Program-made: the position numbers and the translations under genes
Shown here: positions 7,372-55,179 of the stretch, in pieces
How positions within the stretch are numbered: position 1 is the stretch's first letter
Layout: each line of letters opens with the position of its first letter
The notes under the pieces: generated by a model
Seen by the model: only the letters and a program-made list of their open reading frames with translations
Told to the model about the DNA's origin: nothing
Databases searched by the model: none
NCBI GenBank assembly: GCA_036403375.1
Contig: DASWRC010000188.1
Location: 23,248-87,247, forward strand
Reading direction: 5' to 3'
Origin: Pyrinomonadaceae bacterium
GTDB taxonomy: Bacteria; Acidobacteriota; Blastocatellia; Pyrinomonadales; Pyrinomonadaceae
DNA length: 64,000 bases

Positions 7372-7393
7372 AGAATTGTTGAAAAGGAAAAAA

Positions 7394-7537: not shown

Positions 7538-7640
7538 CGGAATAGCTGACAGCTAATAACTGATAACGGATAACTACAGAAACTCCCCTGAGGCGCGCCG
7601 CACATTATCAGCTATTAGCTATCAGTTATCAGCTATTCCG
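7538..7640. repeat. Inverted arrays of tandem heptamers (imperfect hairpin)
   Basis: The left arm is agctgac agctaat aactgat aacggat aactaca. The right arm is ttatcag ctattag ctatcag ttatcag ctattcc. The outermost 12 nt (CGGAATAGCTGA / TCAGCTATTCCG) pair perfectly. A T-run follows (ggttttttg). Confidence 0.8.
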
Positions 7641-7667
7641 AAAGGTTTTTTGATTTATTCACACTCT

Positions 7668-9053: not shown

Positions 9054-9341
9054 ATCAATTCTCCTTTTGGGAAACGCGCTCTGTTTTCGTACACAAACAT
9101 TTCCTTGCCTGTGCCTCAGAGCAAAAGTCATTCCGCAGGTAAGAGATAGCTTTTTTTTAAGGTGAGTATTTGAGAAGAAATTTTTCAACGCCGGGATGCA
9201 AAGCGGCAAAGGCGCTAAAGCGGTTTTAATATTTACCGTTTGCTTTACTTGCCGGCTAATCGGTTTTCAATCCAGACACGTGACGAATAATTACGATATT
9301 TGCGCCTTTGCCGCCTTGGCGACTTCGCATTGAAATAACTC

Positions 9342-30840: not shown

Positions 30841-31006
30841 AACAATCTTTAAAATTTCATCCGGCGCGCTTCTCGGCGCGAATGAGTCGGAAATTTTGTT
30901 TGGCTTGTTACCGGCTTTTTTCAAACAAGAATTTGTTTCCAGTAACAACGATAATAATATTTTAACTTATCTCAGAGCAACCCTTTCGCGAATTTCTACG
31001 CGCCTT

Positions 31007-31690: not shown

Positions 31691-32419
31691 GTGGCTGAAC
31701 AAAATCCCGAAAACCCGATTGCCGCGCAGACGGCGTTTACTGACCGTGACGAGCTTGTCGAACGCTATCGCCCGTACGTCTTCTCGATCGCCAAACAGGT
31801 TTCGCAGAGCTTTCCGGTGCGCATCGATTTTGAAGAGCTGGTCGGTTACGGGATGGTCGGACTGCTCGAAGCCGCCGAGCGCTACGACCCGCGCCGCAAG
31901 GTTTCGTTCGTGACGTTTTCATATTACCGCATCAAGGGCGCGATTTTCGACGGGCTGCGGCAGATGGGAATCCTGACGCGCACGCCGAACGAGGCGTGGG
32001 TGCGCCGCGAATCGGTGCTCAACGATTTGGTGCAGACGGCGTCCGCCGACGAGATGGAAACGCCGGCGGGTTCGGTCGACGACGAAATCGGCGCGGTCGA
32101 AAAGTTTGTCGATTCCCTGATTCCGGCGTATTTGCTTTCACTCAGCGAAGAAAACGCGCCCGACCTTGCCGACTCGCGCGAGCTGCCGAATGTTTCGGTC
32201 GAGTTCTCGGAAACAATTAAAATCGTCCGCGAAACCGTTCGCGAGCTGCCGGAAAAAGAACGCGAAATTATCGAATCGCTTTATTTCCGTCATCTTTCCA
32301 CCACCGAGCTTGCCAAAAAAATGGGCGTCAATAAATCGTGGGTTTCGCGTCTGCACTCAAAAGCCGTCAATCGCCTGCGCCAGCGGCTCGCGATGATTGG
32401 CGTGCTTTCAAATCAATAA
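31691..32419 (+). CDS. fliA: FliA/WhiG-type (sigma-28 family) RNA polymerase sigma factor
   Basis: 242 aa with a GTG start. Regions 2.1-2.4 are LVERYRPYVFSIAKQV ... FEELVGYGMVGLLEAAERYDPRRKVSFVTFSYYRIKGAIFDGLR. The region 4.2 HTH is LSTTELAKKMGVNKSWVSRLHSKAV. Confidence 0.8.
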   Translation: MAEQNPENPIAAQTAFTDRDELVERYRPYVFSIAKQVSQSFPVRIDFEELVGYGMVGLLEAAERYDPRRKVSFVTFSYYRIKGAIFDGLRQMGILTRTPNEAWVRRESVLNDLVQTASADEMETPAGSVDDEIGAVEKFVDSLIPAYLLSLSEENAPDLADSRELPNVSVEFSETIKIVRETVRELPEKEREIIESLYFRHLSTTELAKKMGVNKSWVSRLHSKAVNRLRQRLAMIGVLSNQ

Positions 32420-32550: not shown

Positions 32551-32578
32551 GGAAACTTTTCCGGGAACCTGCCGATAA
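32551..32578 (+). promoter_or_regulatory. Sigma-28 (FliA)-type promoter upstream of the 640-aa toxin-like gene
   Basis: GGAAACTTT-tccgggaacct-GCCGATAA. The -35-like GAAACTTT is at 32552-32559, followed by an 11-nt spacer and the -10-like GCCGATAA at 32571-32578. Enterobacterial class-3 consensus is TAAAGTTT-N11-GCCGATAA. Confidence 0.6.
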
Positions 32579-32678: not shown

Positions 32679-34601
32679 ATGGCAAACCCCGTAAATAACA
32701 GTGGAATTAACGCGCAGGTCAGCGTTGGCGGGGCTTTGAAGGCGAATGTCAACGCCGGCGGCGCGGCGCGGCGGATTTCCGATACGCAAAGCAAAGACAT
32801 TTTTGAGAGCGTCAACGAAAATTACACGAAAAATCCGAATCATTCGCGCCCCGCAGAACAAGCCGGCGACGCCGACCAATCGCATCAAAATCAAGTAAAG
32901 GCAGGTAATAATTCCGCGCCGCCCGGTTTGGCAAAAGACGTTCAGGAGGAGCACGCTGCGCCGCCTGCTCCAAATAAACGCACGAAAAATGCGGACATCG
33001 GCGAAGGCGCGGCGCTTCTGAAAACGGCGGCGCGCGGCGAAAACGGCGACGTGAAAAGTTCGCGTCAGGGAATTTTAAACGGTCGCGGGCAGCAAAAATC
33101 GCAAGTTCCGCCGGAACCGGTCGAAACGCCGCCGATTGTGATTCTGCCGACCGACACGAAAGGCAATCAAACAACTATCGAGACGCCGCCGATTATCGCG
33201 CCGCCGAACGGCAACGGCAATCACGGCGGACCGCACAACAACGCGCCGGGTTCCACCGTGCGCAATCCGCGGATAAATAATCAGAACGCTTTCGGCACTC
33301 GGTTTTCGGTCGATTTAAGCTTGCGCGCGAACGGCAATCAGCCCACGGGCGTGATTCGCAATGTCGTCAACCAGATTTTGCGGCAGAACGACGTTTACCT
33401 CAGCCATAACACGCTAAATCGTCTGATAAGCAGCCGGACTTTCAATAATTCGACGCGCGGCTTTAATCATCCGGCGGTGAATTTGCCGCGCGAAGTCAAT
33501 CAACTATTCCAAACGGTGAGCCGCCGCGCGTTGTCTCTGCTCGATAATTCACGGCAGAATCACAAGCTGATTCACGAAATTTCAAAGGAAATCGGACGCG
33601 AATTACGGGAAAATGTTCAAGCCTCCAAAGCGGCAATTTTTAAAACGGCGGATTTAAGAGCGCTGCATTTCAAGCATCTGAATATCAATGAAAAAATGGA
33701 AGTCGCCGTCGATTTGCTGCCGCAGCATCTTCCTGAAAAAGCGCTTGCGCCCATTCAACACCACCAGCCGAGAGAAGTTCTCGACGCCTTTTTGCTCGCG
33801 CGCGGGCTGATTGTTCCGAGCGAAAAAGCGTCGGAAATCAGAAACCTCTTGGCGGCAAAATCGAGCGTTCTGCCGCCTGCAATTTCGATGACGGCGCTGC
33901 GCGATGTCGGTCAACTGGTGAAAACTCTGATTGCCGATACAGCGGCGGCAAAAACGACCGCGAATCTCGATTCGGCAGTGCAGAAATTCGTCAAAATCCT
34001 GCTCGCCAACAACGAGCTGGGCGTTTTGCTTGCCACTATCAGTCTCGTCGCGCAGACGACCAATGAGAGCGGTTTGGTGAGCCGCTCGCTCGCGCTGGCG
34101 CAGATTTATGAGCTTATCAACCAGCTGATTCCGGCGGGCGAGAAGGCTCTCGGCGAAGCCGCACCGGAAAAAAATATTCTGCAAAAGGAACGAAATATTT
34201 TTCACGCCGCCCCCGCGCTTTCAGCCGTCGATGACACGGATGAATCGAGGGCGCAGATAAATAAACTTCACGCCCAAGAGGCGACGGCGGGAAGCCTGCG
34301 CCAATTTCTGGAATTCAACCCCGCGCTGGTTTACGATAAATCGGCGTCCGCTTTTCACAATCCGGACGACGCGCGGCAGGCGCGCGATAATTTTATCAAT
34401 CTTCATCACGACGACCTCCTCGCCTGGCTCGAAAGCGGAAATCACCGGTTCGTCAAAGATTTCGATTTCGACAAACCGGTCGGCGTGGTCGTCGAGCGCG
34501 GCAGCGAGTCGGTTTTTACGGCAACGACGGCGCGTTTCGTGCTCGTTCGCGACGGCTCGGTGCAGGGCTGGCATTTTCTCAAATCATTTCTGGTAAAATA
34601 A
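32679..34601 (+). CDS. Putative T3SS-secreted polymorphic-toxin-like protein (disordered N-terminus, unassigned C-terminal domain)
   Basis: 640 aa with no Sec signal. The first ~210 aa are N/P/G/Q-rich and disordered. A sigma-28-type promoter lies upstream, and a CdiI-like immunity gene follows 18 bp downstream. The C-terminus ends ...ARFVLVRDGSVQGWHFLKSFLVK. Confidence 0.4.
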   Translation: MANPVNNSGINAQVSVGGALKANVNAGGAARRISDTQSKDIFESVNENYTKNPNHSRPAEQAGDADQSHQNQVKAGNNSAPPGLAKDVQEEHAAPPAPNKRTKNADIGEGAALLKTAARGENGDVKSSRQGILNGRGQQKSQVPPEPVETPPIVILPTDTKGNQTTIETPPIIAPPNGNGNHGGPHNNAPGSTVRNPRINNQNAFGTRFSVDLSLRANGNQPTGVIRNVVNQILRQNDVYLSHNTLNRLISSRTFNNSTRGFNHPAVNLPREVNQLFQTVSRRALSLLDNSRQNHKLIHEISKEIGRELRENVQASKAAIFKTADLRALHFKHLNINEKMEVAVDLLPQHLPEKALAPIQHHQPREVLDAFLLARGLIVPSEKASEIRNLLAAKSSVLPPAISMTALRDVGQLVKTLIADTAAAKTTANLDSAVQKFVKILLANNELGVLLATISLVAQTTNESGLVSRSLALAQIYELINQLIPAGEKALGEAAPEKNILQKERNIFHAAPALSAVDDTDESRAQINKLHAQEATAGSLRQFLEFNPALVYDKSASAFHNPDDARQARDNFINLHHDDLLAWLESGNHRFVKDFDFDKPVGVVVERGSESVFTATTARFVLVRDGSVQGWHFLKSFLVK

Positions 34602-34619
34602 ATCTCACCACAAAAAAAG

Positions 34620-34973
34620 GTGAGTAATTACCGGTTCAAATTTCCAGAGCTTTACCAATTCTTCGGCGGATATTTTTATCAGGGCTGGTCGGCGGATTAT
34701 CGCTGGGAATCGACAAAACCGGATTTCGCGGCGGTCGTCCGGCATTTCAAAGCCGTCAATCCGCTCCCGGCAGTGAACCGCGTCAGAATAGAATTAGCCG
34801 AATTGCTTGCTTTGTCGCTCGATGATACGGAATTAAACGCGGCGTTGAACGAACTGGGCAGCAATTTTTACGTGCCCGCCGAAAAATTAACAAATGTGCA
34901 ATGGCTCGCTAAAATCCTCGAAATACTCGACGAATCGCCGACCAAATCACGGGTTTTAAGAGAGCTCCGGTAA
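34620..34973 (+). CDS. CdiI-like (YFHQDW-type) toxin immunity protein
   Basis: 117 aa with a GTG start. FPELYQFFGGYFYQGW, then ...IELAELLALSLDDTELNAALNELGSNFYVPAEKLTNVQWLAKILEIL, matches my recollection of the contact-dependent-inhibition immunity family. That family has the pattern FFGGYFHQDW ... ELxxLL ... LG ... WL. Confidence 0.6.
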   Translation: MSNYRFKFPELYQFFGGYFYQGWSADYRWESTKPDFAAVVRHFKAVNPLPAVNRVRIELAELLALSLDDTELNAALNELGSNFYVPAEKLTNVQWLAKILEILDESPTKSRVLRELR

Positions 34974-35071
34974 GAAAAATTACCTACTGAAACATTCCGC
35001 TTCGCGTGGACCTGGGATTTTATGGAATTAATCAAAAAATACCGGTATTTATCCGTATTCGTCCCGTGGAT

Positions 35072-35117
35072 TAAATAAAAAAAGGGCGGGATTTCTATGA
35101 AACGAAGAAATCCCGCC
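35072..35117 (-). terminator. Rho-independent terminator of the minus-strand SctF-paralogue/TPR-chaperone unit
   Basis: A 12-bp stem, GGCGGGATTTCT (35085-35096) / AGAAATCCCGCC (35106-35117). On the minus strand it is followed by a T-run (plus-strand aaataaaaaaa, 35074-35083). Confidence 0.65.
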
Positions 35118-35163
35118 AAGAAGAGAAGCACTAGAGTCACATGAAGTATCGTGGAGGAATCCT

Positions 35164-35565
35164 TTAACCGGGCGAAATCAAATCAGCCGCGTCGAGCAGT
35201 GCCTGTGCCGTCTGGCTGTGCGGCGAATCCGGGCTGCCGCTGATGATTTCCCTTAACTCCGATTCGGCGCGGCTGCGCTGGCGACCGAAAAGCAAAGCTT
35301 CGGCATAATGAACGCGGGCGTAAAGGCTGTCCGGATTCTGTTCGAGCGCCTTTTCGCAAATCTCTTCCGCCGCGCTGAAATCGCCCATTTGCAGAAAAAC
35401 CGTGCCCAGCCCGACCTGCGGAACGTCCGATTCGGGCATAAACTCCATCACACCGCGAAAAATCGCTTCCGCTTGTTCGAATTTGGCGGCTTCGCGCAGG
35501 ATGTAACCCGTTTCAAGCATGACGCGCAATTCTTCGCTGCTGACCGGAATCTCGGCTATCGTCAT
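35164..35565 (-). CDS. TPR-type (class II, LcrH/SycD-like) type III secretion chaperone
   Basis: 133 aa with three TPR units. It lies directly downstream of a putative secreted needle-family protein in the same transcription unit. Confidence 0.55.
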   Translation of the reverse strand: MTIAEIPVSSEELRVMLETGYILREAAKFEQAEAIFRGVMEFMPESDVPQVGLGTVFLQMGDFSAAEEICEKALEQNPDSLYARVHYAEALLFGRQRSRAESELREIISGSPDSPHSQTAQALLDAADLISPG

Positions 35566-35665
35566 AAAAAATTAATTCGGCAAAAGTTAAGACGAAATGG
35601 CATTGTTTTTTTTTGTAGATAAACAATTGAACTTTTGCCGAAACTTAAAAAATCTTTTTTGGAAT

Positions 35666-36130
35666 TTACGACTTGATATTGTTGACCGCCGACATTTCAG
35701 AGTCGTGGCGTGTTTTCAAAAGATTTGAAACGGTCGTAAATTCCTGCGCCTGCATCCCGACGCGATGCTGAACGCTGATCAGCTGCATCGAATTCTGCTG
35801 CTGCTGGTTAAGCATCTGGTTTTGCTGGCGCTGCTGCAAAGAACTGGAAATCTGGTTATAACGCTGCATTTCCTCAAACTGGCGCTGCTGTTCCATCAAG
35901 GCGGTGTACGAGCCGGAGGACGCGCCGCCGCTGCCGCCGATGACGTTGCCGAGAATTCCGCCCAAGCCCGGCGCGACGAAATTCAGTGCCGTGCTCGCGA
36001 CGCCGCCGAGAACCTTGAGGAATTTATTGGGTTCCTTTGTTCTTTGCTGGACATCTATTTCCGGAAAAACGGTCGCCACCGGCGGAAGGGTTTCGGTTTT
36101 CACCGGCGTAATCATCGTGTCGTCTGCCAT
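35666..36130 (-). CDS. SctF-family paralogue with Gly-rich N-terminal extension (filament/translocator candidate)
   Basis: 154 aa. The C-terminal 20 aa (SNLLKTRHDSEMSAVNNIKS) share 10/20 ungapped identities with the C-terminus of the 71-aa SctF-like protein at 60357. A Gly-rich hydrophobic block (VLGGVASTALNFVAPGLGGILGNVIGGSGG) and a Q-rich helix are present. AAGGAG RBS and a sigma-28-type promoter lie upstream. Confidence 0.45.
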   Translation of the reverse strand: MADDTMITPVKTETLPPVATVFPEIDVQQRTKEPNKFLKVLGGVASTALNFVAPGLGGILGNVIGGSGGASSGSYTALMEQQRQFEEMQRYNQISSSLQQRQQNQMLNQQQQNSMQLISVQHRVGMQAQEFTTVSNLLKTRHDSEMSAVNNIKS

Positions 36131-36213
36131 AACGCAAATTACCTCTCCTTATAAAAAGTTAAAAACGCGTGCACCGAAGGTCTAAGTCAAAAGATTTCTT
36201 TACTTAAACAACA

Positions 36214-36241
36214 TTATCGTCCGAGTTAAAAAAAAGTTTCC
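36214..36241 (-). promoter_or_regulatory. Sigma-28-type promoter upstream of the SctF-paralogue/TPR-chaperone unit
   Basis: The reverse strand reads GGAAACTTT-ttttaactcg-GACGATAA with an 11-nt spacer, about 85 nt upstream of the start at 36130. Confidence 0.55.
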
Positions 36242-36259
36242 TGATTTTTTTGAGAAATA

Positions 36260-36550
36260 TTATTTTTGCGCGGTGTGCCGCATTTTTTGAAGATTTTGCA
36301 GGAATTCGAGCGTCGTTTCGACCGCCTTTAAGGCGCGCGTCGCCCGCGTCGCTTCGTCGCGCGAGCCGTACCGGACGATTCTTTCGAGACTCGCGCGCGT
36401 TTCGCCGAGCCGCGCGCAGAATTCGTCAAACCGCCGCGTGTCGCCGCTGCTGAAAAGCTCGCCGACGGACGGGTAATCGAATAATTTCGATAAATCGTGA
36501 GCGCCGTCCGGGGCGCTCGTTAAATCATTTATATTTTTTTGGTCCGGCAT
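36260..36550 (-). CDS. Small hypothetical protein (96 aa)
   Basis: Track ORF starts at a TTG (36565). The first ATG gives MPDQKNINDL. No motif recognised and coding status is moderate. Confidence 0.4.
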   Translation of the reverse strand: MPDQKNINDLTSAPDGAHDLSKLFDYPSVGELFSSGDTRRFDEFCARLGETRASLERIVRYGSRDEATRATRALKAVETTLEFLQNLQKMRHTAQK

Positions 36551-36675
36551 ATTTTTAGAGTCCAATAATCGGGATTTAAGACCCCTCGAACCGGGCGTCT
36601 GCTGTCTGCCGAAACCCGCTATATGATAATATCTTTTATAACAGAATTATTTGTCAAAGGTTTCGATAAGTTTGA

Positions 36676-37716
36676 ATGGCGAAAAGATTACTGGTCAAAA
36701 GACGGAAGGAAATTCTTCCCGAACTCACGCAGGAAATTCCCGCAAACGGCATCATCACCGTCGGGAACGATTCTTCGGCGACCATCGAACTGAAAGACGA
36801 AAAAATCGCGCCCGAACAATTCGTAATCGTTTGTGAAGACGACACGATGACCCTGCTCTGCCGCACGGACGGCACTGCCGTGAACGGCGAAAATTTGCCG
36901 CAGGGCGCGCTGCACCATCTCAAATTCGGCGATGAAATCAAGATTGACGGCTACACGCTGACGCCTGAATCGGAAGGAAACGGCGACCGGCGAGCGGCGG
37001 AAACGACTGCTTATTCGGCAGAAATTCAGGAAAATCTGCCGACCCGCCCGGCGCCCGGCGGAATTCACACCACCGGAATGACGGAAAAAACCGAGCGCAG
37101 CCTGAGCGACGTTCTGGAAAATCTTCGTTCGGAAGAAAAGTTTTACTTTTTAATCAAGGCGTCGGACGGCACCGAGAACCGCGTCTATGTCGAATCGGAA
37201 GAGCTGTGGCTCGGCTGGACGGAAACGGGCGAGTGCGTGATTTTGCCCGAGGGCGGCGACGTTGAAATACCGCGTGCCCAAATTCGCAAAGATTGGAGCG
37301 GCGTCGTGCTTTATCCGGTGAAGAAGGGCGACGTTTGGCTCAACGACGAAACTCTGGGGGAACCGCGCCGTCTGAAAAACGACGATAAAATCTTTCTCCA
37401 ATCAAAAGAAACCGCGCGGCTTAATCTCGAAACCGTCATCAAATTTCACGAACCGACCGCACTTCTGATTCTCGATTCGATTCTGCCGAAAGAACTGCCG
37501 CCGCCGATTCTGCTCGATGAAACCGCAACCGATGCGGGCGCGCGCGAAATTGACGAGTCGGATTTGATTGACACCGGCAAAATTTCTTCAGCAGCCGTAA
37601 AACCGGCGCGCAAAGGAAATATTTTCGGGTATTTTACGGTAACCGAAATAATTATTATGGCAATCGGCACGCTGATTACGGCGGCGGTTATTTATATGAT
37701 TCTGGAACTGTATTAA
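36676..37716 (+). CDS. Double-FHA-domain, C-terminally membrane-anchored protein (SctD-position protein without periplasmic domain)
   Basis: 346 aa. FHA-like block 1 is ITVGNDSSATIELKDEKIAPEQFVIVCEDDTMTLLCRTDGTAVNGENL...GDEIKIDGYTL. A second FHA-like block lies at ~170-245. The only TM segment (IIIMAIGTLITAAVIYMILELY) is at the extreme C-terminus. The gene is immediately upstream of sctV. Confidence 0.6.
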   Translation: MAKRLLVKRRKEILPELTQEIPANGIITVGNDSSATIELKDEKIAPEQFVIVCEDDTMTLLCRTDGTAVNGENLPQGALHHLKFGDEIKIDGYTLTPESEGNGDRRAAETTAYSAEIQENLPTRPAPGGIHTTGMTEKTERSLSDVLENLRSEEKFYFLIKASDGTENRVYVESEELWLGWTETGECVILPEGGDVEIPRAQIRKDWSGVVLYPVKKGDVWLNDETLGEPRRLKNDDKIFLQSKETARLNLETVIKFHEPTALLILDSILPKELPPPILLDETATDAGAREIDESDLIDTGKISSAAVKPARKGNIFGYFTVTEIIIMAIGTLITAAVIYMILELY

Positions 37717-37800
37717 ACCTTCCGCAACAAAACCTTTTAATAATCGTGAAAGAATTGTTAAAATTAGCCTGATAAAGTTTAAATAAAGGATTTTTGGGAA

Positions 37801-46783: not shown

Positions 46784-47743
46784 TCAAAAACGTCCGGCGC
46801 GTGCGCCGTCAAATGCGGCGCGTTCGGGCAGATAAAATTCTTCAAACCCGTGTGATGTGAGCGGACGCCCGGCGCGGAAATAATGCGTCACCGCGCCCCG
46901 ACCTTCGTGCGCAAACGGATTTAACCATGAGCGAAGCCCTAACGCCTGCGGCACGCCGTCGTTGCGGTTGACGTAATGAACATACTGCGGTCCGTCCGTG
47001 TAGCGCCGCGCCGCGCCGCCGAAGGTTTCGACCTTGATGCCGCTCATTAAATTTTCAGCTTCGCGGCGCGACATTCCGTCTTCGAGCATCAGGCGGTTTT
47101 TCACGTCCTGCAGCGCGCGGCTGGTGATGAGCGCGCCCTGCGAATGCGCGAGCAGATGAACGCCGCGCCCCGCGCGCAGCTCGTTGTAAACCGTGTCGGC
47201 GAGCGTATCGACCGCCGGATTTCTGCCGATGTCGAGCTTATCGCCCAAAGATTGCAGAATATCGGTTCCGAAACCTTCGGTCGCGTTGTGAATTCCGACA
47301 ACGCGCGAGCCGGAATTATCGGCAAGCGCCTGCAAACTGTTCGCCTGTCCGGCAACATTCGTGCGAATTCCGTTGACGTAAATTAATGTTTCGTTATTGC
47401 GTGTGCCGCCCGCCGGGATTACTGCGGGAATTTCGCTCAAAACGGTCGCGGGCGCAAAAGTCTGACCGCCGGCACCGAGGAAATAACCGTCGAATCGTTT
47501 GTCCGGCGCGGCTACTTCGCGTTGTAATCGCAGGCTTAACGGGTGCAGCGCGGTCGAAAGACCGGTGCGCGAAGCAAACGCCTCGCCGAGGGTCAGCGCG
47601 CTCGCCTCGGCAAAATTACAGGCTGCTCCGGCTTCATGCAAAACCTCATTCTGAACCGTTTCTCTTAACGAATTGCCGGCTTCGAGCGGCTTTAGAAAAC
47701 TTCTGCCGATTTCCGCCGCGATGCCTCTCAAACTCAAACCCAT
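46784..47743 (-). CDS. Alpha/beta-hydrolase (lipase/esterase-like, GxSxG) putative effector
   Basis: Track ORF starts at a TTG (47761). The ATG at complement 47741-47743 has GGAGGA 10 nt upstream. The nucleophile-elbow motif is VHLLAHSQGALI. No signal peptide. A sigma-28-type promoter lies upstream. Confidence 0.6.
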   Translation of the reverse strand: MGLSLRGIAAEIGRSFLKPLEAGNSLRETVQNEVLHEAGAACNFAEASALTLGEAFASRTGLSTALHPLSLRLQREVAAPDKRFDGYFLGAGGQTFAPATVLSEIPAVIPAGGTRNNETLIYVNGIRTNVAGQANSLQALADNSGSRVVGIHNATEGFGTDILQSLGDKLDIGRNPAVDTLADTVYNELRAGRGVHLLAHSQGALITSRALQDVKNRLMLEDGMSRREAENLMSGIKVETFGGAARRYTDGPQYVHYVNRNDGVPQALGLRSWLNPFAHEGRGAVTHYFRAGRPLTSHGFEEFYLPERAAFDGARAGRF

Positions 47744-47784
47744 CCGATCGCGTTCCTCCAAAAATTTATCTTCCTTGAAATAAG

Positions 47785-47812
47785 TTTTCGGCAGAGGTTT
47801 CTAAAAGTTTCC
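47785..47812 (-). promoter_or_regulatory. Sigma-28-type promoter upstream of the hydrolase/chaperone unit
   Basis: The reverse strand reads GGAAACTTT-tagaaacctct-GCCGAAAA with an 11-nt spacer, about 42 nt upstream of the ATG at 47743. Confidence 0.6.
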
Positions 47813-48095
47813 CAAAAAAAGGAAAAATCAATACCGCCAGCGGCAGCGAGCACGTTTGTCGACGAAATTTTTGAAACTGATTCAAACTTGCGGTCGCCGC
47901 GCCTGTACTGATTTAATCCGCGCCGCGCTCGCCGTACCGATTTAAGAAACTATTACGGAAAAATGTCGATAATTATCAGGCGGGCAGAATTTTTCAAAGC
48001 CGCGCCGGATTTTTATAAGAAATTGAAAATTTTAGGTTTAACAAACGCGCGATTTTCAAATATAATTTCGCTAAAAACTATTTGGGGAAAACAAA

Positions 48096-48500
48096 ATGGC
48101 GATAAAAAAAACAGGTTCACCTCTCAGCAGCGGCGCCGAATCGCTCGACCCGCTCGGCGGCAAAGAGCCGCTTCGGCAATCAGGCAAGGTCGATAAAAAT
48201 TTCGAAGCGGCTTTAGCGGAAGTCGCCGGGCAGATTGAACAGGCTGCCGGCAGCGAAAAAAGCGACAGCCGCGTGCGTTCGGCGTTTCAGCAAATCGCTT
48301 CCGGCGCCAATCTCGATTCGCCCGAAGGCGCGATGACGGCGGTGCGCGAATCGGCGCGTTTTCTCGTCCATTCGCGTCTCAAAGACGGGATGAGCGATAC
48401 CGAACAGGGCAAAAAAATCTCCGAAGACCTGAGCAGCTACATCTCGAAAGACCCGTTTATGCACCGCAAAATTTTGGGCATTCTGCAAAGATTGAAGTAA
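48096..48500 (+). CDS. Hypothetical 134-aa protein
   Basis: ORF with an ATG start and a weak RBS. No motif recognised. The N-terminus MAIKKTGSPLSSG is vaguely FlgM-like, but the C-terminus is not. Confidence 0.4.
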   Translation: MAIKKTGSPLSSGAESLDPLGGKEPLRQSGKVDKNFEAALAEVAGQIEQAAGSEKSDSRVRSAFQQIASGANLDSPEGAMTAVRESARFLVHSRLKDGMSDTEQGKKISEDLSSYISKDPFMHRKILGILQRLK

Positions 48501-48620
48501 ACCGGTTCAAAGCTCAAAAAGGTTTTGCCCGCGACCGCACGAAACAAACGAAAAAAATAGAAATATTTTCGATGCGCGTTTATTTAGTGTATTTCGCGGG
48601 CAAAATCTTTTTTAAATTCG

Positions 48621-48648
48621 GGAAACTTTCTCCGAACGCAAACGATAA
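48621..48648 (+). promoter_or_regulatory. Sigma-28-type promoter upstream of the peptidoglycan hydrolase gene
   Basis: GGAAACTTT-ctccgaacgca-AACGATAA with an 11-nt spacer, about 42 nt upstream of the start. Confidence 0.55.
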
Positions 48649-48689
48649 CCTTGCCAGAAGCAGCAATTTAAAATCAAGCGAGGGAAAAC

Positions 48690-50582
48690 GTGATGCAGGT
48701 TGGCGCAAAGAGTTTTGTCGAGGAAGTTTTAGAGATTTTCGGTTTCGGAAGCGAGGAATCGGCGGCAAACGGCAACACGCTGACTTCAAACAAATTTTTG
48801 TCGTCGAACGATTCTGAAGCCACCGCCGTCGAAAGAAATCTGGTTGACCGCAGCCCGATTCTGCGCGCCGGGCTGAATAACGCTTTTGCCGCCGCCGAAG
48901 CCAGCCGCTTTGATTACCAACGGATTCAGGGCGTTCGCGGAAACCGTTTCGTAACGGCGGAATTTTTGAGCGAAGTCGAAAATACGGCGCAGCGAATCGG
49001 CACGCGTCCCGAATATCTGCTGGCGGTGATGAGCTTTGAAACCGGCGGCACGTTTGACCCGGCAAAACGCAACGGTATCGGCGCGACCGGCTTGATTCAA
49101 TTTCTGGTTCCGACGGCGGAAGGTTTGGGAACTTCGACCGCCGCGCTGGCACGCATGTCGTCGGTCGAACAGCTCCGCTACGTCGAAAAATATTTCGACC
49201 AGCCGAACTTTCGCGGGCGGCTCGGTTCTCTGGAAGGATTGTACACGGCGGTTTTGAGCGGCAGAGCGCGTCAGAATAGCGACGATGTTTTGTTCCGTCA
49301 GGGGACGAGCGCCTACCGGCAAAATCCGCTCGATTGGAATAACGACGGGCAAATCACGGCTGGCGAAGCGATTACACCGGTAGCGGCGCGAATGTTCGGC
49401 GGCGTTCGCGCCGTTCAGCAAAGACTTCTCGACGCCGGTTTCGTTCCGGAAAACCAGCAGCGCCGCTTTGCCGACGGCGACTGGGGCGCAGACACGTCAG
49501 CCGCGCTCCGGCGTTTTCAGGAAGCAAACGGCTTGCCCGCGACCGGCTTGCTCGACGACCGGACGGGACGCCGGCTTTTCGGATTGCGTGCCGTGCCCGC
49601 GACGAATCCGACCAATCCGTCAACGCCGGGAGCGAGCGATTTACAGCGCGGAAGCGAGGGCGCGGCGGTCGTGCGGATTCAGGATAATTTAATCAAACTC
49701 GGCTTTCTGACCGAAGCCCAAAAAAGCACCGGCGCGGGAGTTTTCGGACCGCAGACGGAAGCCGCTCTGAAAGCGTTTCAGCGCCGCGCACATCTCGAAG
49801 CCAACGGTAGATTCGACGCCCCGACCGAGCGCGGGATGGGCGAAATCGAGCTCGGTCTCGGGCGCACGACGAGCGTTAAAAACCAGAATTTAACGAAAGG
49901 AATTCAAGACCGGCTGGTCGAGCTCGGGTACTTGACGCGCGCCGCGGTCGACACCGGCTACGGCGCGTTCGGACCGCAAACCGAAAGCGCAATCATACAA
50001 TTTCAGGCGCGCAGCGGCTTACCGCAAACCGGACGCGCCGCCGATGTGACTTTTCGAATATTGTTTTCCGAAAGCGCGCGCCGCTCAAATTCAGGCGTCA
50101 CGGGCGCCGCTTATTCGGTCGCCGCCGGCGGCAGGCATTACACGGTCGAGCCGGGAATCCTGATGACCGACTCGCTTCGCCCGCAGCTGCAAAATTTAGC
50201 CGACCGTTATCACGAGCAAACCGGAAATAATCTCCACATTACGAGCGGTTATCGTCCGCCCGCACGACAGGCTTCGGCGATGTACGATTTGATTCATTCG
50301 CGCGGCGAGCGATACGTGCGCGACCTTTATACGAATAAAACGGCGGTTGACCAAATCCTGGCGGCTTACCGCAACAGCGGCGGCAGCCGAGCGGAAGCGA
50401 TTGCGGCGATGACGCGAACGATAAACAATCAAATCGGGCACGGCACGTATATCTCCGACCATCTGCGAAGCGAGGCTCTGGACATCAGCACGAGCGCGAA
50501 TTTCAGAGTTTTGAGCCGGCTTGTTCGCGAGCTCGGCGGCTCGGTTTTGAACGAGGGAAATCATTTTCACGTCGAACTTTAA
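48690..50582 (+). CDS. Multidomain peptidoglycan hydrolase: lysozyme/lytic-transglycosylase-like + 3x PG_binding_1 + M15 (LAS) peptidase
   Basis: 630 aa (GTG 48690 or ATG 48693). The N-domain has LAVMSFETGGTFDP...GATGLIQFLVPTAEGLG. Three PG-binding repeats are present: GDWGADTSAALRRFQEANGLPATG, GVFGPQTEAALKAFQRRAHLEANG, GAFGPQTESAIIQFQARSGLPQTG. The C-domain has HITSGYRP, HLRSEALD (H-x6-D) and GNHFHVE. No Sec signal. A sigma-28-type promoter lies upstream. Confidence 0.75.
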   Translation: MMQVGAKSFVEEVLEIFGFGSEESAANGNTLTSNKFLSSNDSEATAVERNLVDRSPILRAGLNNAFAAAEASRFDYQRIQGVRGNRFVTAEFLSEVENTAQRIGTRPEYLLAVMSFETGGTFDPAKRNGIGATGLIQFLVPTAEGLGTSTAALARMSSVEQLRYVEKYFDQPNFRGRLGSLEGLYTAVLSGRARQNSDDVLFRQGTSAYRQNPLDWNNDGQITAGEAITPVAARMFGGVRAVQQRLLDAGFVPENQQRRFADGDWGADTSAALRRFQEANGLPATGLLDDRTGRRLFGLRAVPATNPTNPSTPGASDLQRGSEGAAVVRIQDNLIKLGFLTEAQKSTGAGVFGPQTEAALKAFQRRAHLEANGRFDAPTERGMGEIELGLGRTTSVKNQNLTKGIQDRLVELGYLTRAAVDTGYGAFGPQTESAIIQFQARSGLPQTGRAADVTFRILFSESARRSNSGVTGAAYSVAAGGRHYTVEPGILMTDSLRPQLQNLADRYHEQTGNNLHITSGYRPPARQASAMYDLIHSRGERYVRDLYTNKTAVDQILAAYRNSGGSRAEAIAAMTRTINNQIGHGTYISDHLRSEALDISTSANFRVLSRLVRELGGSVLNEGNHFHVEL

Positions 50583-50715: not shown

Positions 50716-51792
50716 ATGTCGGCAGGCACAGGAGAAAAAACCGAGCAACCAACTGATAAGCGGCTTCGGGACGCCCGGAAAAAAGGTCAGGTCGCGAAAA
50801 GTCAGGATTTAACCGGCGCGCTTTTATTGATTGCGGCGGTCGCCGTCGTCTGGCTCGTCGGCGGCTACATCGGCGGAATTTTGCAGGGAACGGTGAAAGA
50901 CCAAATCGAATTTGCCGCGACCTTCAAGGGGCAATTTACGTCGGAAACCGCCTACGCCGTGCTGTGGCGCGGGATGAGCGGGATGTTCTGGGCTTTGACG
51001 CCGATTTTTGTCGTCGTGCCGGTTTTTGCCTTTTTGGGAAATTACCTGCAAATCGGGACGATTTTTTCGTTTGAATCAATCGCGCCGAATTTTAATAAAT
51101 TAAATCCAGTCGAAGGCTTCAAGCAAAAATTCCTAAAATCGCGCCCGTATATCGAGCTCGGCAAAACGATTTTCAAAATGCTGATAACCGCGTCGGTTGC
51201 CGGTTACGTGCTCTGGGCGGCGCGCGAGGACATTGTCCGATTAATAGAAAAACCGCCGGACGCGGCGGCGGCTTACACGTTCTCGCTGGTTTTGGAAATC
51301 GGTCTGAAAATCGGTCTGGCGTTTTTAATCCTCGGCGGCGCGGATTATTTTCTGCAAAGATTTCTGCACCGGCAGGATATGAAAATGACCAAGCACGAGG
51401 TCCGGGAAGAATACAAGGAAACCGAGGGAAACCCGCTGATTAAAGCGCAGAGACGCGCGCTGCACCGCGAAATTTTATCGCAGAGTCTGGCGGCGGCAGT
51501 CCGCGATGCCGACGTCGTAATGGCAAACCCGACGCACGTTGCGGTCGCGCTGAAATACGAGCGCGGAAAGGCAAACGCGCCGATGGTGACGGCAAAAGGC
51601 GCCGATTTGATGGCGGCGCAGATTCGCCAAATCGCCCGGGAATCGGGTGTTCCCGTAAAACGCGACATACCGCTGGCGCGCGCGCTTTACGAACTCGAAG
51701 TCGAGCAGGAAATTCCCGAAGAACTCTACGAGGCGGTCGCGGTTGTTCTGCAATGGGTTTATTCGATGGCGGAAGAACGGGCGGAAGTTTAA
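50716..51792 (+). CDS. sctU: Type III secretion autoprotease/substrate-switch protein SctU (FlhB/YscU family)
   Basis: 358 aa. It opens with the canonical GEKTEQPTDKRLRDARKKGQVAKSQDL and has four TM segments. The NPTH autocleavage site sits in VVMANPTHVAVALKY. Confidence 0.95.
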   Translation: MSAGTGEKTEQPTDKRLRDARKKGQVAKSQDLTGALLLIAAVAVVWLVGGYIGGILQGTVKDQIEFAATFKGQFTSETAYAVLWRGMSGMFWALTPIFVVVPVFAFLGNYLQIGTIFSFESIAPNFNKLNPVEGFKQKFLKSRPYIELGKTIFKMLITASVAGYVLWAAREDIVRLIEKPPDAAAAYTFSLVLEIGLKIGLAFLILGGADYFLQRFLHRQDMKMTKHEVREEYKETEGNPLIKAQRRALHREILSQSLAAAVRDADVVMANPTHVAVALKYERGKANAPMVTAKGADLMAAQIRQIARESGVPVKRDIPLARALYELEVEQEIPEELYEAVAVVLQWVYSMAEERAEV

Positions 51793-51808
51793 TTTGTAAT
51801 CCGAAGGT

Positions 51809-52459
51809 ATGGCAGATATTAAAAACGTCAATCGGAGCGGCGGAAACGAAATCGGCAGTTTGACGAATAATCAGATTGCCGAAGGGGAAGTTCCGCGCGT
51901 CCCGCAGTCAGGCGCGAAGACCGAACAGACGCAGTTTCCGGTCGGGCAGCCCGTCGAGACGCGCCCACCGTCCGACGCGACCGCGATTTTGAATGATGCG
52001 GTTATCGGGCGCGACACGACGCAGCTCGAAGCCGCCAAACAGTTAAGCGCGCTGGGCGGCGTTTCGGCGACCGACCGTCTTTTGGGCTTGGATTTGCGCC
52101 CGACGATGACCGGCGTTCTGGCAGCGCCGCCCGGAAACGCCGAGTTTCTGCGGCATCTTTCACCGCAGGCGCGCCGCACGATTATGCGGAAAATGCTCAA
52201 CAAACAGCGCGAAAGAATGCGCCGGCTGGCGCGCTACCTGCGCGACCGCCGCGACGAGTCGGCGGGCGAGGAGAGCGGCGGCGAAGAGGGCGAAAGCTTT
52301 CTGGAAGTAATCTCGGAGCCGGTCGAATTAGACCGCTCAAAACTCGTGCGGGCGACGCACGAGCTTGAAAAAGCCGCGCGAATGTTGAATATTTTAGACG
52401 AAATGCTGGCGATGCAGGATTATACAATCAGCCAAATCGGGACGTTTACGCAGGGATAA
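51809..52459 (+). CDS. Hypothetical 216-aa protein between sctU and sctQ
   Basis: ATG start with a GAAGG RBS. The protein is disordered and charged with a helical C-terminus. No motif recognised. Confidence 0.4.
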   Translation: MADIKNVNRSGGNEIGSLTNNQIAEGEVPRVPQSGAKTEQTQFPVGQPVETRPPSDATAILNDAVIGRDTTQLEAAKQLSALGGVSATDRLLGLDLRPTMTGVLAAPPGNAEFLRHLSPQARRTIMRKMLNKQRERMRRLARYLRDRRDESAGEESGGEEGESFLEVISEPVELDRSKLVRATHELEKAARMLNILDEMLAMQDYTISQIGTFTQG

Positions 52460-52471
52460 TTTTTAATCAAA

Positions 52472-53902
52472 ATGGCAGCTCCGAATCATCTTACCGAAAC
52501 CGAAAACGCGGTGCGCCCGCCCGATGCGCCGCGCGACCCGTTTGCCGTCGATTTTTTCGGCGGGGCGACCCCGATTGCCGATGACGATGAGCTGTTTGCG
52601 GAAAAGGAGCCGAAAACCCGCCGGCGCATAAAGCCGCAAAAAAAATCCGATTGGCACAGAAATCTGCCCCGAATCACGAACCGCGAAGCCGGGTTTTCCA
52701 ATCTTTTATCCAATTTACCGGAAAATTTAACGCAAAATTCCGCCGGAATGATTGCGGAAACGCTTGCGCGCTACGCTTTTCGCGAAGCCGGACAGGTCGA
52801 ATGTTCGATTATCTCGGCAACGGAAACAAATCTATCCGACGCGGTAAACAGCTTGGCTGAAACCGCGCAGGTTTTTCTGACGGTTGAATGTCAGCCGGAC
52901 AGTGCCCGGGCAATCGTCGGGCTAAACATTGAATTCGCGCGCCTTTTGATTGATTCGATGCTCGGCGGAAAAGGCGCGGAATCCCGAAACCGGCGCGCGC
53001 TTTCGCCGGTTGAAACGACGATTATCGAATTTCTCGCCGCGAATGTTTTAGGCGAAATCAACCGGTTTTTAGGCGCGCCGATGCTTTTCCTGCAGGACGT
53101 GAAAAATGAACCGGCAGCCGCCTTCGACGCGTTCGAGCGCGGTGCGGAGATTGTTTTTAATCTCGAATTCGGGGATTTCAAAGGCATTGTCACGCTTGTC
53201 GCGCCGGTGAAATTCGTCGGCGGGCTCGATAAATCGCAAAATCCGAAGCTGTTTAAAAAATCGGACAGAAAAAGTCTGCGCGATTTTGAAAAATTTGCGC
53301 CCGCGTTCGATTTACGCCTGCAAATCGGCACGACTTTTCTCGACGCGGACAGTCTTTTATACCTTGAACCGGATGATATAGTTTTGATTGAGCAATCGCT
53401 CGCCGGGGCGGCAGGCGCGAATTTCGGTGCTGATTTACAGGTTTTTGTCGGGCGCGGAAGAAATTTTCGACTTCGGGGAAATACCCAAAGCAATGATTTC
53501 GGCGGCGGTTTGAATTTCAGAATAGAGGAAATTTTGAGCGAGGACGCGCGGCGGCGATTTACGCCCGCAAAATTTAAAATGGACGAAATAGAAAACGATT
53601 CAGCGGAAGAAACGAATCTCGAAGCGACGGGCGCGCCGGCAGCGGAAGATGAAATGCCGGACGAACAGATTTCGCCGTCGCTGGAAAATGTACAAGTCGC
53701 GCTGCGCGTTGAAATTGCGGGCAACAAAATCTCTCTGCGCGAGCTGCAGAATCTTCGTGCCGGACAGATTATCGCGCTCGGTTGCAGCCCGGCAGACCCG
53801 GTGCGTCTCGTCACGGATAACAACGAAGAACCGGTCGCGACGGGCGAACTGGTCGAAATCGAAGGACAGCTCGGCGTGCGTTTGACGAAAGTTTTTATTT
53901 GA
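52472..53902 (+). CDS. sctQ: Type III secretion sorting-platform protein SctQ (FliM-like N-part + FliN/SpoA C-domain)
   Basis: 476 aa. The FliM-like block is LLIDSMLGGKGAESRNRRALSPVETTIIEFLAANVLGEIN. The C-terminal SpoA domain is VQVALRVEIAGNKISLRELQNLRAGQIIALG...ATGELVEIEGQLGVRLTKV. Confidence 0.85.
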   Translation: MAAPNHLTETENAVRPPDAPRDPFAVDFFGGATPIADDDELFAEKEPKTRRRIKPQKKSDWHRNLPRITNREAGFSNLLSNLPENLTQNSAGMIAETLARYAFREAGQVECSIISATETNLSDAVNSLAETAQVFLTVECQPDSARAIVGLNIEFARLLIDSMLGGKGAESRNRRALSPVETTIIEFLAANVLGEINRFLGAPMLFLQDVKNEPAAAFDAFERGAEIVFNLEFGDFKGIVTLVAPVKFVGGLDKSQNPKLFKKSDRKSLRDFEKFAPAFDLRLQIGTTFLDADSLLYLEPDDIVLIEQSLAGAAGANFGADLQVFVGRGRNFRLRGNTQSNDFGGGLNFRIEEILSEDARRRFTPAKFKMDEIENDSAEETNLEATGAPAAEDEMPDEQISPSLENVQVALRVEIAGNKISLRELQNLRAGQIIALGCSPADPVRLVTDNNEEPVATGELVEIEGQLGVRLTKVFI

Positions 53903-54026
53903 GCCGTTCGGGTTTTTAAAGAATTATTGCCCGCGCGCAGAGACGAAGGAAACGAAAAAAAAGAAATATTTTATTTCTTTGAATTTACTTTTCCGTGTTT
54001 CGTGCGCTTCGTGGGCAAAATTAAAT

Positions 54027-54416
54027 ATGGGCAATTCTTTGAGTTTTTTGTGGATGCTGGTGCAGACGATTTTTGCGCTGGCGCTCGTCTGCGGGCTGGC
54101 ATACCTGATTTTTCGCGTCATTCTGCCGCGTCTCGCCGTCAATTACGGCTCGAACAACATGGTGCGCGTCGTTGACCGCATCGGTTTGGAAGCGCGAAAA
54201 AGTCTTTATGTAATTGAAGTTGCCGGAAAATGGATGCTCGTCGCCTCGTCGGAAAGCGGCGTGCAGTTTATCGCCGAGCTCGATGCCGAAAGCGCTCGCC
54301 TCGCGGAAGAAGAAATTGTCAAAAACCGTCAATTGCCAGCCAACTCGGCGTTCGGAAAATCTTTTGCCGACAAGCTTAACGAGGTTATCAATCGCGGCAA
54401 ACAAGGAGGGAAGTAA
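54027..54416 (+). CDS. FliO-like single-pass membrane protein
   Basis: Track ORF is 53979..54416. The ATG at 54027 gives MGNSLSFLWMLVQTIFALALVCGLAYLIFRVILPRL, then VRVVDRIGLEARKSLYVIEVAGKWMLVASSESGV, which is FliO-like. Its stop overlaps the sctR start (TAATG). Confidence 0.5.
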   Translation: MGNSLSFLWMLVQTIFALALVCGLAYLIFRVILPRLAVNYGSNNMVRVVDRIGLEARKSLYVIEVAGKWMLVASSESGVQFIAELDAESARLAEEEIVKNRQLPANSAFGKSFADKLNEVINRGKQGGK

Positions 54417-55171
54417 TGAGACGCCGACTCGTAATTATGTTCTGCACCTTCGCTTTTATCGGAGTCCTGCCGATTTTCGCGCAGGACGCGCCCGCAAAAT
54501 CTGCCGACACGGCAAATCCGGTCGTTTTAATCATTATCGTCGGCGCGCTCGCGCTCGCGCCGTTCGGTTTGATAATGCTGACTTCGTTTGTCAAAATCGC
54601 GGTCGTACTTTCGATTCTGAGGAACGCGCTCGGCACACAGCAGGTTCCGCCGAATCAGGTCATCACGGGCATCGCACTAATCTTAACGATTTTCATTATG
54701 TCGCCGGTCGTCGAAAAAATGTATTCGGAAGCCGGAGCGATACAAAACACGGAAGCGATTTTTTCAGAGGTTTCGGTAAAAACGCTGTTTGAAGCCTCGA
54801 AAAAAGGCAAAGAACCGCTTCGACAGTTTCTCATACGCTACGCTGACGAGCGGCACCGCGTGATGTTTTTCAATCTCGCACAGCAGATGGCGCAGAAAAA
54901 CGGCAACGACCCGAACGCGATTACGGCAGACGAATTTCGCGTGGTCATCCCGGCGTTTGTCACGAGTCAGTTGACCGAAGCCTTTCAAATCGGCTTTATT
55001 CTATTTGTGCCGTTCCTGATTATCGACATGGTCGTCGCCAACATATTGCAGGCGATGGGAATGTTTATGCTCTCGCCGACGATTATTTCGCTGCCGTTTA
55101 AACTGCTGCTGTTCGTGCTTATAAACGGTTGGGAACTGCTGATAAAAAACCTCGTTCTGGGGTATGTCTGA
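54416..55171 (+). CDS. sctR: Type III secretion export apparatus protein SctR (FliP family)
   Basis: 251 aa with the canonical FVKIAVVLSILRNALGTQQVPPNQVITGIALILTIFIMSPV. Confidence 0.95.
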   Translation: MRRRLVIMFCTFAFIGVLPIFAQDAPAKSADTANPVVLIIIVGALALAPFGLIMLTSFVKIAVVLSILRNALGTQQVPPNQVITGIALILTIFIMSPVVEKMYSEAGAIQNTEAIFSEVSVKTLFEASKKGKEPLRQFLIRYADERHRVMFFNLAQQMAQKNGNDPNAITADEFRVVIPAFVTSQLTEAFQIGFILFVPFLIIDMVVANILQAMGMFMLSPTIISLPFKLLLFVLINGWELLIKNLVLGYV

Positions 55172-55179
55172 TGATTTGC

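Follow-up and report, generated by a model that had tools for sequence, protein, structure and literature searches.

A probable sigma-28-type substrate regulon in an injectisome-type secretion island of Pyrinomonadaceae, with a fixed and altered toxin/immunity-like pair

Introduction

Non-flagellar type III secretion systems (T3SSs) are regarded as anti-eukaryote tools. A 2012 survey found them only in Proteobacteria, Chlamydiae and Verrucomicrobia (PMC3459982), and our literature search returned no paper on a T3SS in Pyrinomonadaceae. In Myxococcus, a T3SS* is required for prey lysis with local degradation of peptidoglycan (PG) (PMC12428579). RNase A-like toxins were recorded in a 2017 survey for secretion systems of types V, VI and VII (T5SS, T6SS and T7SS), the T3SS not being listed (PMC5435912). 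The DUF1521 domain is known from the type III-secreted proteins NopE1 and NopE2 (PMC6506597). The stretch analysed here, called the window, comprises 64,000 nucleotides and is part of a 91-kb metagenome contig (ENA ERZ27256982) from Pyrinomonadaceae (Acidobacteriota). It carries a T3SS island in which a 640-amino-acid (aa) protein with an RNase A-like domain, a two-headed PG hydrolase and a serine hydrolase lie behind promoters of one type. This set is probably the sigma-28-type substrate regulon of a new Pyrinomonadaceae lineage of injectisome-type T3SS, and includes a toxin/immunity pair that appears to have been fixed and altered.

The secretion island and its promoters

Domain scans, which took in essentially all large open reading frames (ORFs), place the T3SS island at ~27.7 to 60.6 kb of the window. 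Its genes encode SctP/FliK-like, SctO-like, sigma factor, FHA/SctD-like, SctV, SctJ, SctL, SctN, SctU, SctQ, FliO-like, SctR, SctS and SctT proteins, together with an SLT enzyme and three tetratricopeptide repeat (TPR) proteins, all three of which have T3SS chaperones as their best matches. The injectisome core set is complete (SctV, N, J, D, L, Q, R, S, T and U), and is arranged in two blocks identified by the domain scans:

36676..43885, forward strand: SctD-like FHA protein, SctV, SctJ, p336, SctL, SctN
50716..56477, forward strand: SctU, p216, SctQ (FliM/N-like), FliO-like protein, SctR, SctS, SctT

SctV scores 543 bits against LcrD/YscV-type proteins versus 360 bits against FlhA, and SctN is closest to injectisome ATPases. 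The idea of a degenerate flagellum was rejected: the island has SctD and a short SctJ, its SctV resembles that of injectisomes, and the scans brought up no gene for a rod, hook or filament. Flagellum-like traits within this injectisome-like core are the FliO-like gene (53979-54416) and p336 (336 aa, 40881-41891, between sctJ and sctL), which has a faint FliG_M match (E 0.007). Eighteen related loci were collected from species-representative genomes, all of them Pyrinomonadaceae or other Acidobacteriota metagenome-assembled genomes; single loci are cited below by handle (L003 and so on).

The island encodes its own sigma factor:

31691..32419, forward strand: FliA/WhiG-like sigma factor, 242 aa (Pfam Sigma70_r2 and r4)

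This protein is 65-92% identical among relatives, and its best NCBIfam family is FliA_WhiG (E 2.2e-37; 129 bits, under the cut-off of 189.6). The intergenic regions of the island have GAAACTTT-N11-GCCGATAA in common, a motif close to the Escherichia coli FliA consensus, TAAAGTTT-N11-GCCGATAA. A relaxed pattern, GAAAC[TA][TA]T-N13-CGA[AT]AA, occurs eight times against 0.19 expected, the maximum in 200 shuffles being 2. All eight copies, located by pattern search, are intergenic, properly oriented and 5' of a gene without a signal peptide:

32552..32578, forward strand: sigma-28-type promoter P1 (GAAACTTTTCCGGGAACCTGCCGATAA), ahead of the 640-aa gene
36214-36240, reverse strand: promoter of p154
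46229-46255, reverse strand: promoter of p742
47785-47811, reverse strand: promoter of the alpha/beta hydrolase
47946-47972, forward strand: promoter of p134
48622-48648, forward strand: promoter of the PG hydrolase
58623-58649, reverse strand: promoter of p192 and the SLT gene
59275-59301, forward strand: promoter of p152, the 156-aa TPR gene and a 71-aa ORF

Signal peptides were assessed by a 10-residue hydropathy scan of N-termini, with Sec and lipoprotein proteins of the window as positive controls. Cargo N-termini reach a maximum of 1.4 (p152: 1.9), versus 2.6-3.4 for the controls (SctJ, M23, VanY-like, VIT-VWA and others). The original prediction, made from the sequence alone, had placed sigma-28-type promoters ahead of signal-peptide-less genes, and both the promoter counts and the hydropathy values bear this out. 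AlphaFold2 models give disordered N-termini to the hydrolase (residues 1-78) and the 640-aa protein (residues 1-220). The promoter motif also precedes the orthologous genes in L003, L004, L006, L007 and L026, where the proteins are 42-75% identical, and gene order is maintained even in genomes where the 640-aa protein has just 33-67% identity. Because promoters, disordered N-termini, adjoining chaperone-like partners and synteny are shared in this way, the genes can be described as a co-regulated set resembling T3SS substrates. Since rod- and needle-type candidates stand in the set beside enzymes, the promoter marks exported substrates and not effectors specifically.

The RNase A-like protein and its partner

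The gene behind P1 and the gene that follows it are:

32679..34601, forward strand: 640-aa protein; disordered 1-220, helical domain 221-495, RNase A-like domain ~536-640 (bases 34284-34598) (Pfam, PDB, AlphaFold2)
34620..34973, forward strand: CdiI_2-type immunity-like protein, 117 aa (PF18593, E 4.5e-13; PDB 5E3E_A, E 5e-4)

Residues 554-631 of the larger protein match PF18431, RNAse_A_bac (E 2.3e-8, 35.3 bits versus a cut-off of 27), and a sequence search against PDB pairs its C-terminus with chain B of 5E3E (E 4e-4). Adjacent genes thus match both chains of one toxin/immunity crystal complex. Foldseek, the check recommended with the original prediction, also returned 5E3E_B as the top match (probability 1.0, TMt 0.50), on a low-confidence model; for the serine hydrolase the same check gave only generic folds. 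No Foldseek relative was found for the N-terminal ~500 residues, helical domain included. A likeness of the helical domain to pore-forming toxins was considered and rejected, the Foldseek matches being weak and below significance.

The CdiI_2 gene is present in every fetched locus with a toxin-like gene (L007 holds neither) and lies directly 3' of that gene wherever genes were called. In nearly every locus, the pair adjoins the sigma gene and T3SS genes. All 60 of 60 homologues of the 640-aa protein have the identical architecture with the same C-terminal domain, and mean identity falls from 69% in the RNase-like domain to 54% in the helical part and 30% in the N-terminus. A polymorphic toxin, with a variable C-terminus, was rejected on these figures. 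The 640-aa protein had been predicted to be followed by a polymorphic-toxin-type immunity gene; the families are right (PF18431 and PF18593, both chains of 5E3E), but the pair is not polymorphic, the RNase-like domain being the most conserved part of its protein, and the canonical catalytic residues are replaced across the clade.

These replacements emerged from a profile search of 1.84 billion representative proteins, which recovered the T3SS-linked clade and then canonical toxins with other N-termini. Twenty-two canonical (outgroup) relatives and 41 members of the clade compare as follows, in the numbering of the Yersinia toxin:

His175: canonical H 22/22; clade H 13/41, Q 13/41, other 15/41
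Arg186: canonical R 22/22; clade F 40/41 (F543 in the 640-aa protein)
Thr276: canonical T 22/22; clade K 39/41, R 2/41 (K635 in the 640-aa protein)
Tyr278: canonical F or Y 21/22; clade F 37/41

All four residues are required for activity of the Yersinia toxin by mutagenesis, and His175 and Thr276 are invariant among its published homologues (PMC5435912). The GGHTxExHVGK motif is not present in the T3SS-linked clade either. With residues and motif gone, the domain therefore either has no activity of the canonical RNase kind or has had its active site rebuilt; plasticity of this site is pointed to in the Yersinia toxin paper (PMC5435912). A relocated active site using His632 was rejected, as this residue occurs equally in outgroup toxins that keep the canonical residues and is not specific to the clade. 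By the alignments, the RNase-like domain and its partner are under strong constraint despite the altered site. The argument that toxin plus immunity equals an interbacterial weapon therefore loses much of its weight. Independently of the residue loss, a nuclease made in the cytoplasm would need a cytoplasmic inhibitor whatever its target.

Among the canonical toxins nearest to the clade (P0249, P0251, P0254, P0259), several have a HELTH zincin-like motif in the N-terminal region, which may be of the DUF4157 type.

The head of the operon differs among loci. In the window P1 lies directly ahead of the 640-aa gene, whereas in relatives the equivalent promoter is ahead of a DUF1521 gene that heads the same operon. 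A DUF1521 gene and a TPR gene stand between the sigma gene and the 640-aa gene in L003 (8277-9953) and L004 (8308-9956), with a sigma-28 motif in front. This pair is not present in the window.

The peptidoglycan hydrolase and the serine hydrolase

Two further enzymes and two small conserved proteins lie between sctN and sctU:

48690..50582, forward strand: two-headed PG hydrolase, 630 aa; lytic transglycosylase 88-235, three PG_binding_1 modules ~240-460, LAS/M15-like peptidase ~515-630 (Pfam, PDB, motifs)
48096..48500, forward strand: p134, conserved protein without family match (Pfam, NCBIfam) or signal peptide
46784..47761, reverse strand: alpha/beta serine hydrolase, 325 aa, start probably the ATG at 47743 (319 aa) (triad, AlphaFold2, Foldseek)
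46347..46763, reverse strand: p138, small acidic protein, 138 aa, isoelectric point 4.7; candidate class I secretion chaperone (position, size, charge)

Residues 88-235 of the PG hydrolase match a solved lytic transglycosidase, 9udh_A (E 7e-26), with the motif MSFETGG...GATGLIQF invariant in three orthologues, and three PG_binding_1 stretches are recognised by Pfam (E 7e-37). By profile, both assignments are firm. The C-terminus keeps the LAS motifs SGYR, H-x6-D and H-x-H in orthologues; its Pfam M15_3 match is weak (E 0.0037, 17.8 versus 23.2 bits), and the M15-like part gave no match in a sequence search of PDB. The predicted description of this protein as a two-headed PG hydrolase with three PG-binding modules was correct, the LAS head resting on the motifs and the weak M15_3 match. 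Judged from its domains, the enzyme is expected to cleave glycan as well as peptide.

In L006 and L007 the gene is likewise flanked by p134 and sctU. The same slot in L026 and L027 holds a different, inverted two-headed enzyme, still behind a sigma-28 motif (L026:3068-5580), which joins homologous PG-binding modules to an M23 peptidase and to a motif like that of lambda lysozyme (AYAEGT...AAGRYQF). Both heads have been replaced and the modules are homologous, so the design of glycan cutter, binding modules and peptide cutter has been retained. FlgJ-type enzymes likewise show domain swaps. Ahead of the L026 variant lies a gene for a 161-aa protein whose signal peptide is of the lipoprotein type, and no homologue of this lipoprotein was found in the window; going by its arrangement, the L026 pair may form an effector/immunity cassette. 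In the window, no ORF with a signal peptide, and hence no candidate for periplasmic immunity, adjoins the PG hydrolase or the serine hydrolase. A second PG-lytic enzyme of the island, the 378-aa SLT lytic transglycosylase (56756-57892, reverse strand), is likewise without a signal peptide and comes after the rod-like p192; it is the more obvious assembly enzyme of the two. The design of the two-headed enzyme, the swap and the separate SLT favour a lytic effector. However, the absence of a Sec signal from a PG hydrolase within a T3SS cluster fits wall remodelling for assembly too.

In the serine hydrolase the triad Ser201, Asp262 and His298 is invariant, and the nucleophile elbow reads A-H-S-Q-G, not strict GxSxG. 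Foldseek listed generic thioesterase, esterase and cutinase folds (E ~1e-4, TM 0.3-0.45), the first T6SS lipase coming at rank 35 with TM 0.25, and a sequence search of PDB gave no match. The best-listed homologues, 62-96% identical, are all from the same lineage. What had been called a GxSxG lipase/esterase-like hydrolase is indeed a Ser-Asp-His alpha/beta hydrolase, but its elbow departs from that motif and its fold, on the model, is generic and not lipase-specific. Directly 3' of it in all loci compared is p138, which has no signal peptide. The sole PDB profile match of p138 is the CesT 'Tir chaperone' 5wez_A, collinear over residues 4-100 at E 1.3, below significance.

Between p138 and the p742 promoter lies a terminator-like hairpin (46267..46346) whose 29-nt arms consist of tandem heptamers (TGCTAAG/TGCTGAG). 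A repeat hairpin that looks similar by eye occurs in L026 near 3555-3625. Similar repeat-rich sequence was also noticed by eye 5' of the SLT gene (~57893-57990), a stretch in which the repeat tool detected no inverted repeat.

Candidate subunits, chaperones and variable cargo

The remaining genes behind the promoters, with their partners, are:

35164..35565, reverse strand: TPR chaperone-like protein, 133 aa, downstream of p154 (NCBIfam SctY, CdsG, LcrH, E ~1e-7, all under cut-off)
35666..36130, reverse strand: p154, possible needle or pilus-type subunit (weak HrpA pilin match, E 0.0037)
43963..46191, reverse strand: p742, variable cargo (no Pfam, NCBIfam or PDB match)
56756..58561, reverse strand: p192 (weakly SctI-like, E 0.04), then SLT, 378 aa (NCBIfam, Pfam)
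59275..60572 (promoter included), forward strand: p152 (Gly-rich), LcrH/SycD-like TPR chaperone (156 aa), 71-aa paralogue of p154 (NCBIfam, pattern search)

The 71-aa ORF (60357-60572) is paralogous to the C-terminal half of p154 (E 6e-9), and both end in HD..M..NN.KS. The ORF has no PDB or NCBIfam match. The two are candidate needle or filament subunits. The apparatus had been called needle-bearing, a term for which the locus offers only the weak matches of p154 to HrpA and of p192 to SctI.

The slot beside sctN is variable. In L026 and L027 it holds a protein of ~671 aa that has only residues 1-200 in common with p742 (59% identity), and p742 is not at this slot in L003/L006 and L007. No immunity-like gene follows p742 or its 671-aa counterpart. 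Secreted effectors typically combine a common N-terminal module with C-termini that are exchanged. Relaxed-threshold searches of Pfam and NCBIfam gave nothing useful for p742, p138, p134, p101, p152, p216, p336 or the 71-aa ORF.

A model of the regulon

These observations suggest a model in which the island-encoded FliA-like sigma factor would drive at least eight GAAACTTT-N11-GCCGATAA promoters, whose products, predicted to have no Sec signals and disordered N-termini, would be passed to the export gate, probably with the help of small partners (LcrH-like TPR proteins, the acidic CesT-sized protein and the CdiI_2-like protein). The regulon would comprise probable structural substrates (rod- and needle-like proteins and SLT) and conserved enzymatic substrates, namely the two-headed PG hydrolase, the Ser-Asp-His hydrolase and the 640-aa protein. 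The C-terminal domain of the latter and its downstream partner would descend from an RNase A-like polymorphic toxin/immunity cassette, which appears to be fixed, altered and non-polymorphic here and may serve either as a nuclease with a rebuilt site or as a binding module kept with its partner. The separate slot beside sctN would carry variable cargo with a common N-terminal module of 200 residues.

Several points weigh against this model. Export by the T3SS, the chaperone roles and all activities are inferred from sequence; the sigma factor stays below the FliA cut-off of NCBIfam; the needle and rod assignments are weak (p154 to HrpA, E 0.0037; p192 to SctI, E 0.04); the chaperone label of p138 leans on a match at E 1.3; and the modelled RNase-like domain is of low confidence (pLDDT 53-72). 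Loss of the canonical residues, moreover, does not prove loss of nuclease activity.

If the promoter code marks substrates, the cargo is predictable and therefore testable. The locus matters in that a family common in soil has a conserved T3SS lineage whose promoter code can be read and points to substrates. It would also provide an example of a toxin/immunity pair that is fixed in a lineage and is without its canonical active site.

The target cell

The original prediction went beyond co-regulation and proposed an antibacterial arsenal of the T6SS style. In this proposal the T3SS delivers to neighbouring bacteria an enzyme that degrades the wall, a hydrolase of lipids or esters and a toxin of the nuclease type, for attack or predation, while the immunity protein protects the producer. 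We regard it as a tentative possibility. The substrate of the PG hydrolase is exclusively bacterial, and in size and elaboration the enzyme exceeds the usual assembly transglycosylases, a separate SLT being available in the rod-like operon. Its slot in L026 and L027 is filled by a non-homologous two-headed enzyme behind a sigma-28 motif and beside a lipoprotein gene, possibly for periplasmic immunity. The RNase-like/CdiI_2 pair is descended from toxins of T5SS, T6SS and T7SS (PMC5435912). Bacterial killing by a T3SS, presented in the prediction as an unusual role, is less unprecedented than that, prey lysis by the Myxococcus T3SS* being a precedent (PMC12428579). The island also has no secretin among its scanned ORFs, which the prediction had used as an argument. 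No secretin domain (SctC) was found in any scanned ORF of the window, to which the search was limited; however, T3SS loci in relatives are divided among separate genomic sites, so the absence says little about the genome as a whole and is weak as an argument.

Other features speak against an antibacterial role. The toxin-like domain is not polymorphic and has lost the Arg and Thr of the catalytic site and in most members also the His; no candidate for periplasmic immunity adjoins either hydrolase in the window; and the serine hydrolase is generic, far from T6SS lipases in its Foldseek list. LcrH/SycD-like chaperones and DUF1521 proteins are traits of eukaryote-targeting systems, and the affinity of SctV is to injectisomes. 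A literature search found no report of predation by Pyrinomonadaceae, and a second one, on antibacterial toxins delivered by T3SSs, returned nothing relevant. Of the predicted arsenal, the co-regulated signal-peptide-less set resembling T3SS substrates has stood, while the immunity argument is weakened and the enzymes are without periplasmic immunity genes beside them in the window. The strongest form of the proposal, in which a widespread soil family of Acidobacteria lyses bacteria by a sigma-switched T3SS whose cargo is a modular two-headed PG hydrolase, a serine hydrolase and an RNase-like toxin that has been re-engineered, is doubtful. If the wall-degrading cargo does act on other bacteria, T3SS-dependent killing of bacteria would be extended beyond Myxococcus with candidate effectors named, and an antibacterial use would make this the first T3SS with identified antibacterial cargo.

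The locus may instead encode an ordinary injectisome directed against eukaryotic microbes such as amoebae, fungi or nematodes, again a possibility to be held only tentatively. The serine hydrolase, p742, the DUF1521 proteins and the 640-aa protein would then be effectors, and the PG hydrolases would serve only for passage through the producer's own wall. SctV is nearest to LcrD/YscV-type proteins, the two LcrH/SycD-like chaperones imply hydrophobic translocators, relatives carry DUF1521 proteins, and the variable cargo has no immunity gene. Serine hydrolase effectors are also common in eukaryote-targeting systems. However, the scans recognised no domain of eukaryotic type in the window's cargo genes, and neither a secretin nor a recognisable translocon in the island. 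A two-headed PG hydrolase with three modules is, moreover, far more elaborate than the assembly enzymes EtgA and IpgF.

Export into the producer's own envelope only, by an early-type or secretin-less T3SS whose conserved 'cargo' would be assembly or envelope-remodelling factors and whose RNase-like/CdiI_2 pair would be a structural or regulatory module, is improbable: the core-like fixation of the hydrolase (62-96% identical), PG hydrolase, p134 and p138 between sctN and sctU in every relative examined, the rod- and needle-like genes under the same promoters, the lost catalytic residues of the toxin-like domain and the argument of Abby and Rocha that the ancestral non-flagellar T3SS was not contact-dependent (PMC3459982) agree with it, but the variable slot with its shared N-terminal module and the DUF1521 proteins resemble true effectors, LcrH-like chaperones are present, and SctV has its affinity to full injectisomes.

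Neighbouring genes

A gene of the FGE-sulfatase type (formylglycine-generating-enzyme-like, E 4e-46) lies at 29851-30948 on the reverse strand, between the SctO-like gene and the TPR/SctP-like pair. It is kept at the same position in relatives (50-69% identity) and is an odd passenger for a T3SS operon. It belongs to a co-directional run on the reverse strand (7668-31495) in which several junctions are tight or overlapping. The run contains SctO-like, FGE, TPR and SctP-like genes, a LuxR response regulator, a Reg_prop histidine kinase and a Reg_prop protein; further members encode a VIT-VWA protein, a TPR protein of 2497 aa, another protein of 599 aa, an M23 peptidase and a YkuD transpeptidase. 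Both kinase and regulator adjoin T3SS genes in L003 too. Within a cluster of wall enzymes (5294-10094), signal peptides are clear in the M23 peptidase and in two proteins with a weak likeness to VanY, in contrast to the two T3SS-linked PG hydrolases, both of which are without. The N-terminus of YkuD as called has a low hydropathy score, and its start may be wrong.

Comparison with known systems

The set of cargo can first be compared with the antibacterial effectors of T6SS and type IV secretion systems (T4SS), which include Tae/Tge amidases and glycosidases, Tle lipases and nucleases with immunity proteins. The three broad enzyme classes are alike. However, T6SS and T4SS effectors have periplasmic immunity genes, none of which stands beside the PG hydrolase or the serine hydrolase here, and no specific similarity to Tle was seen. 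A second comparison is with the 'needleless' T3SS* of Myxococcus xanthus, which acts with the Tad-like Kil system; both are secretin-less T3SS-like loci of soil bacteria with a link to PG degradation (PMC12428579; PMC3459982). M. xanthus belongs to another phylum, and the present locus differs in having SctD, LcrH-like chaperones and candidate needle and rod proteins, with no Tad/Kil genes in the window.

The DUF1521 proteins NopE1, NopE2 and VIC_001052, which are type III-secreted, have their counterpart in L003 and L004, where DUF1521 and TPR genes head the operon of the 640-aa gene, unlike the window, which has no such pair (PMC6506597). The flagellar class 3 regulon under FliA (sigma-28) resembles the present one in a nearly identical -10 element, equal spacing and a sigma gene inside the cluster. 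It differs in its object, for the regulon here governs a T3SS that is not flagellar; the window is without genes for flagellin, hook or motor, and no anti-sigma factor of the FlgM kind came to light.

PG-lytic enzymes of flagella and injectisomes (FlgJ, EtgA, IpgF/IagB, HpaH) are likewise encoded within T3SS clusters. The enzyme here, like FlgJ of Salmonella, is without a Sec signal and is hence presumed to be exported by the machine. The present enzyme differs from the FlgJ/EtgA type in joining two catalytic heads and three PG-binding modules within 630 aa, with a simpler SLT already beside the rod-like gene. Finally, the CdiA-CT/CdiI pair of Yersinia kristensenii (PDB 5E3E; PF18431, PF18593) is homologous in both partners and agrees in the toxin-then-immunity order and in the C-terminal position of the toxin domain. 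In the Pyrinomonadaceae the pair is instead tied to a T3SS locus, its domain is conserved, H175 is variable, R186 is replaced by Phe and T276 by Lys; it would be the first link of the RNase A-like toxin/immunity family to a T3SS.

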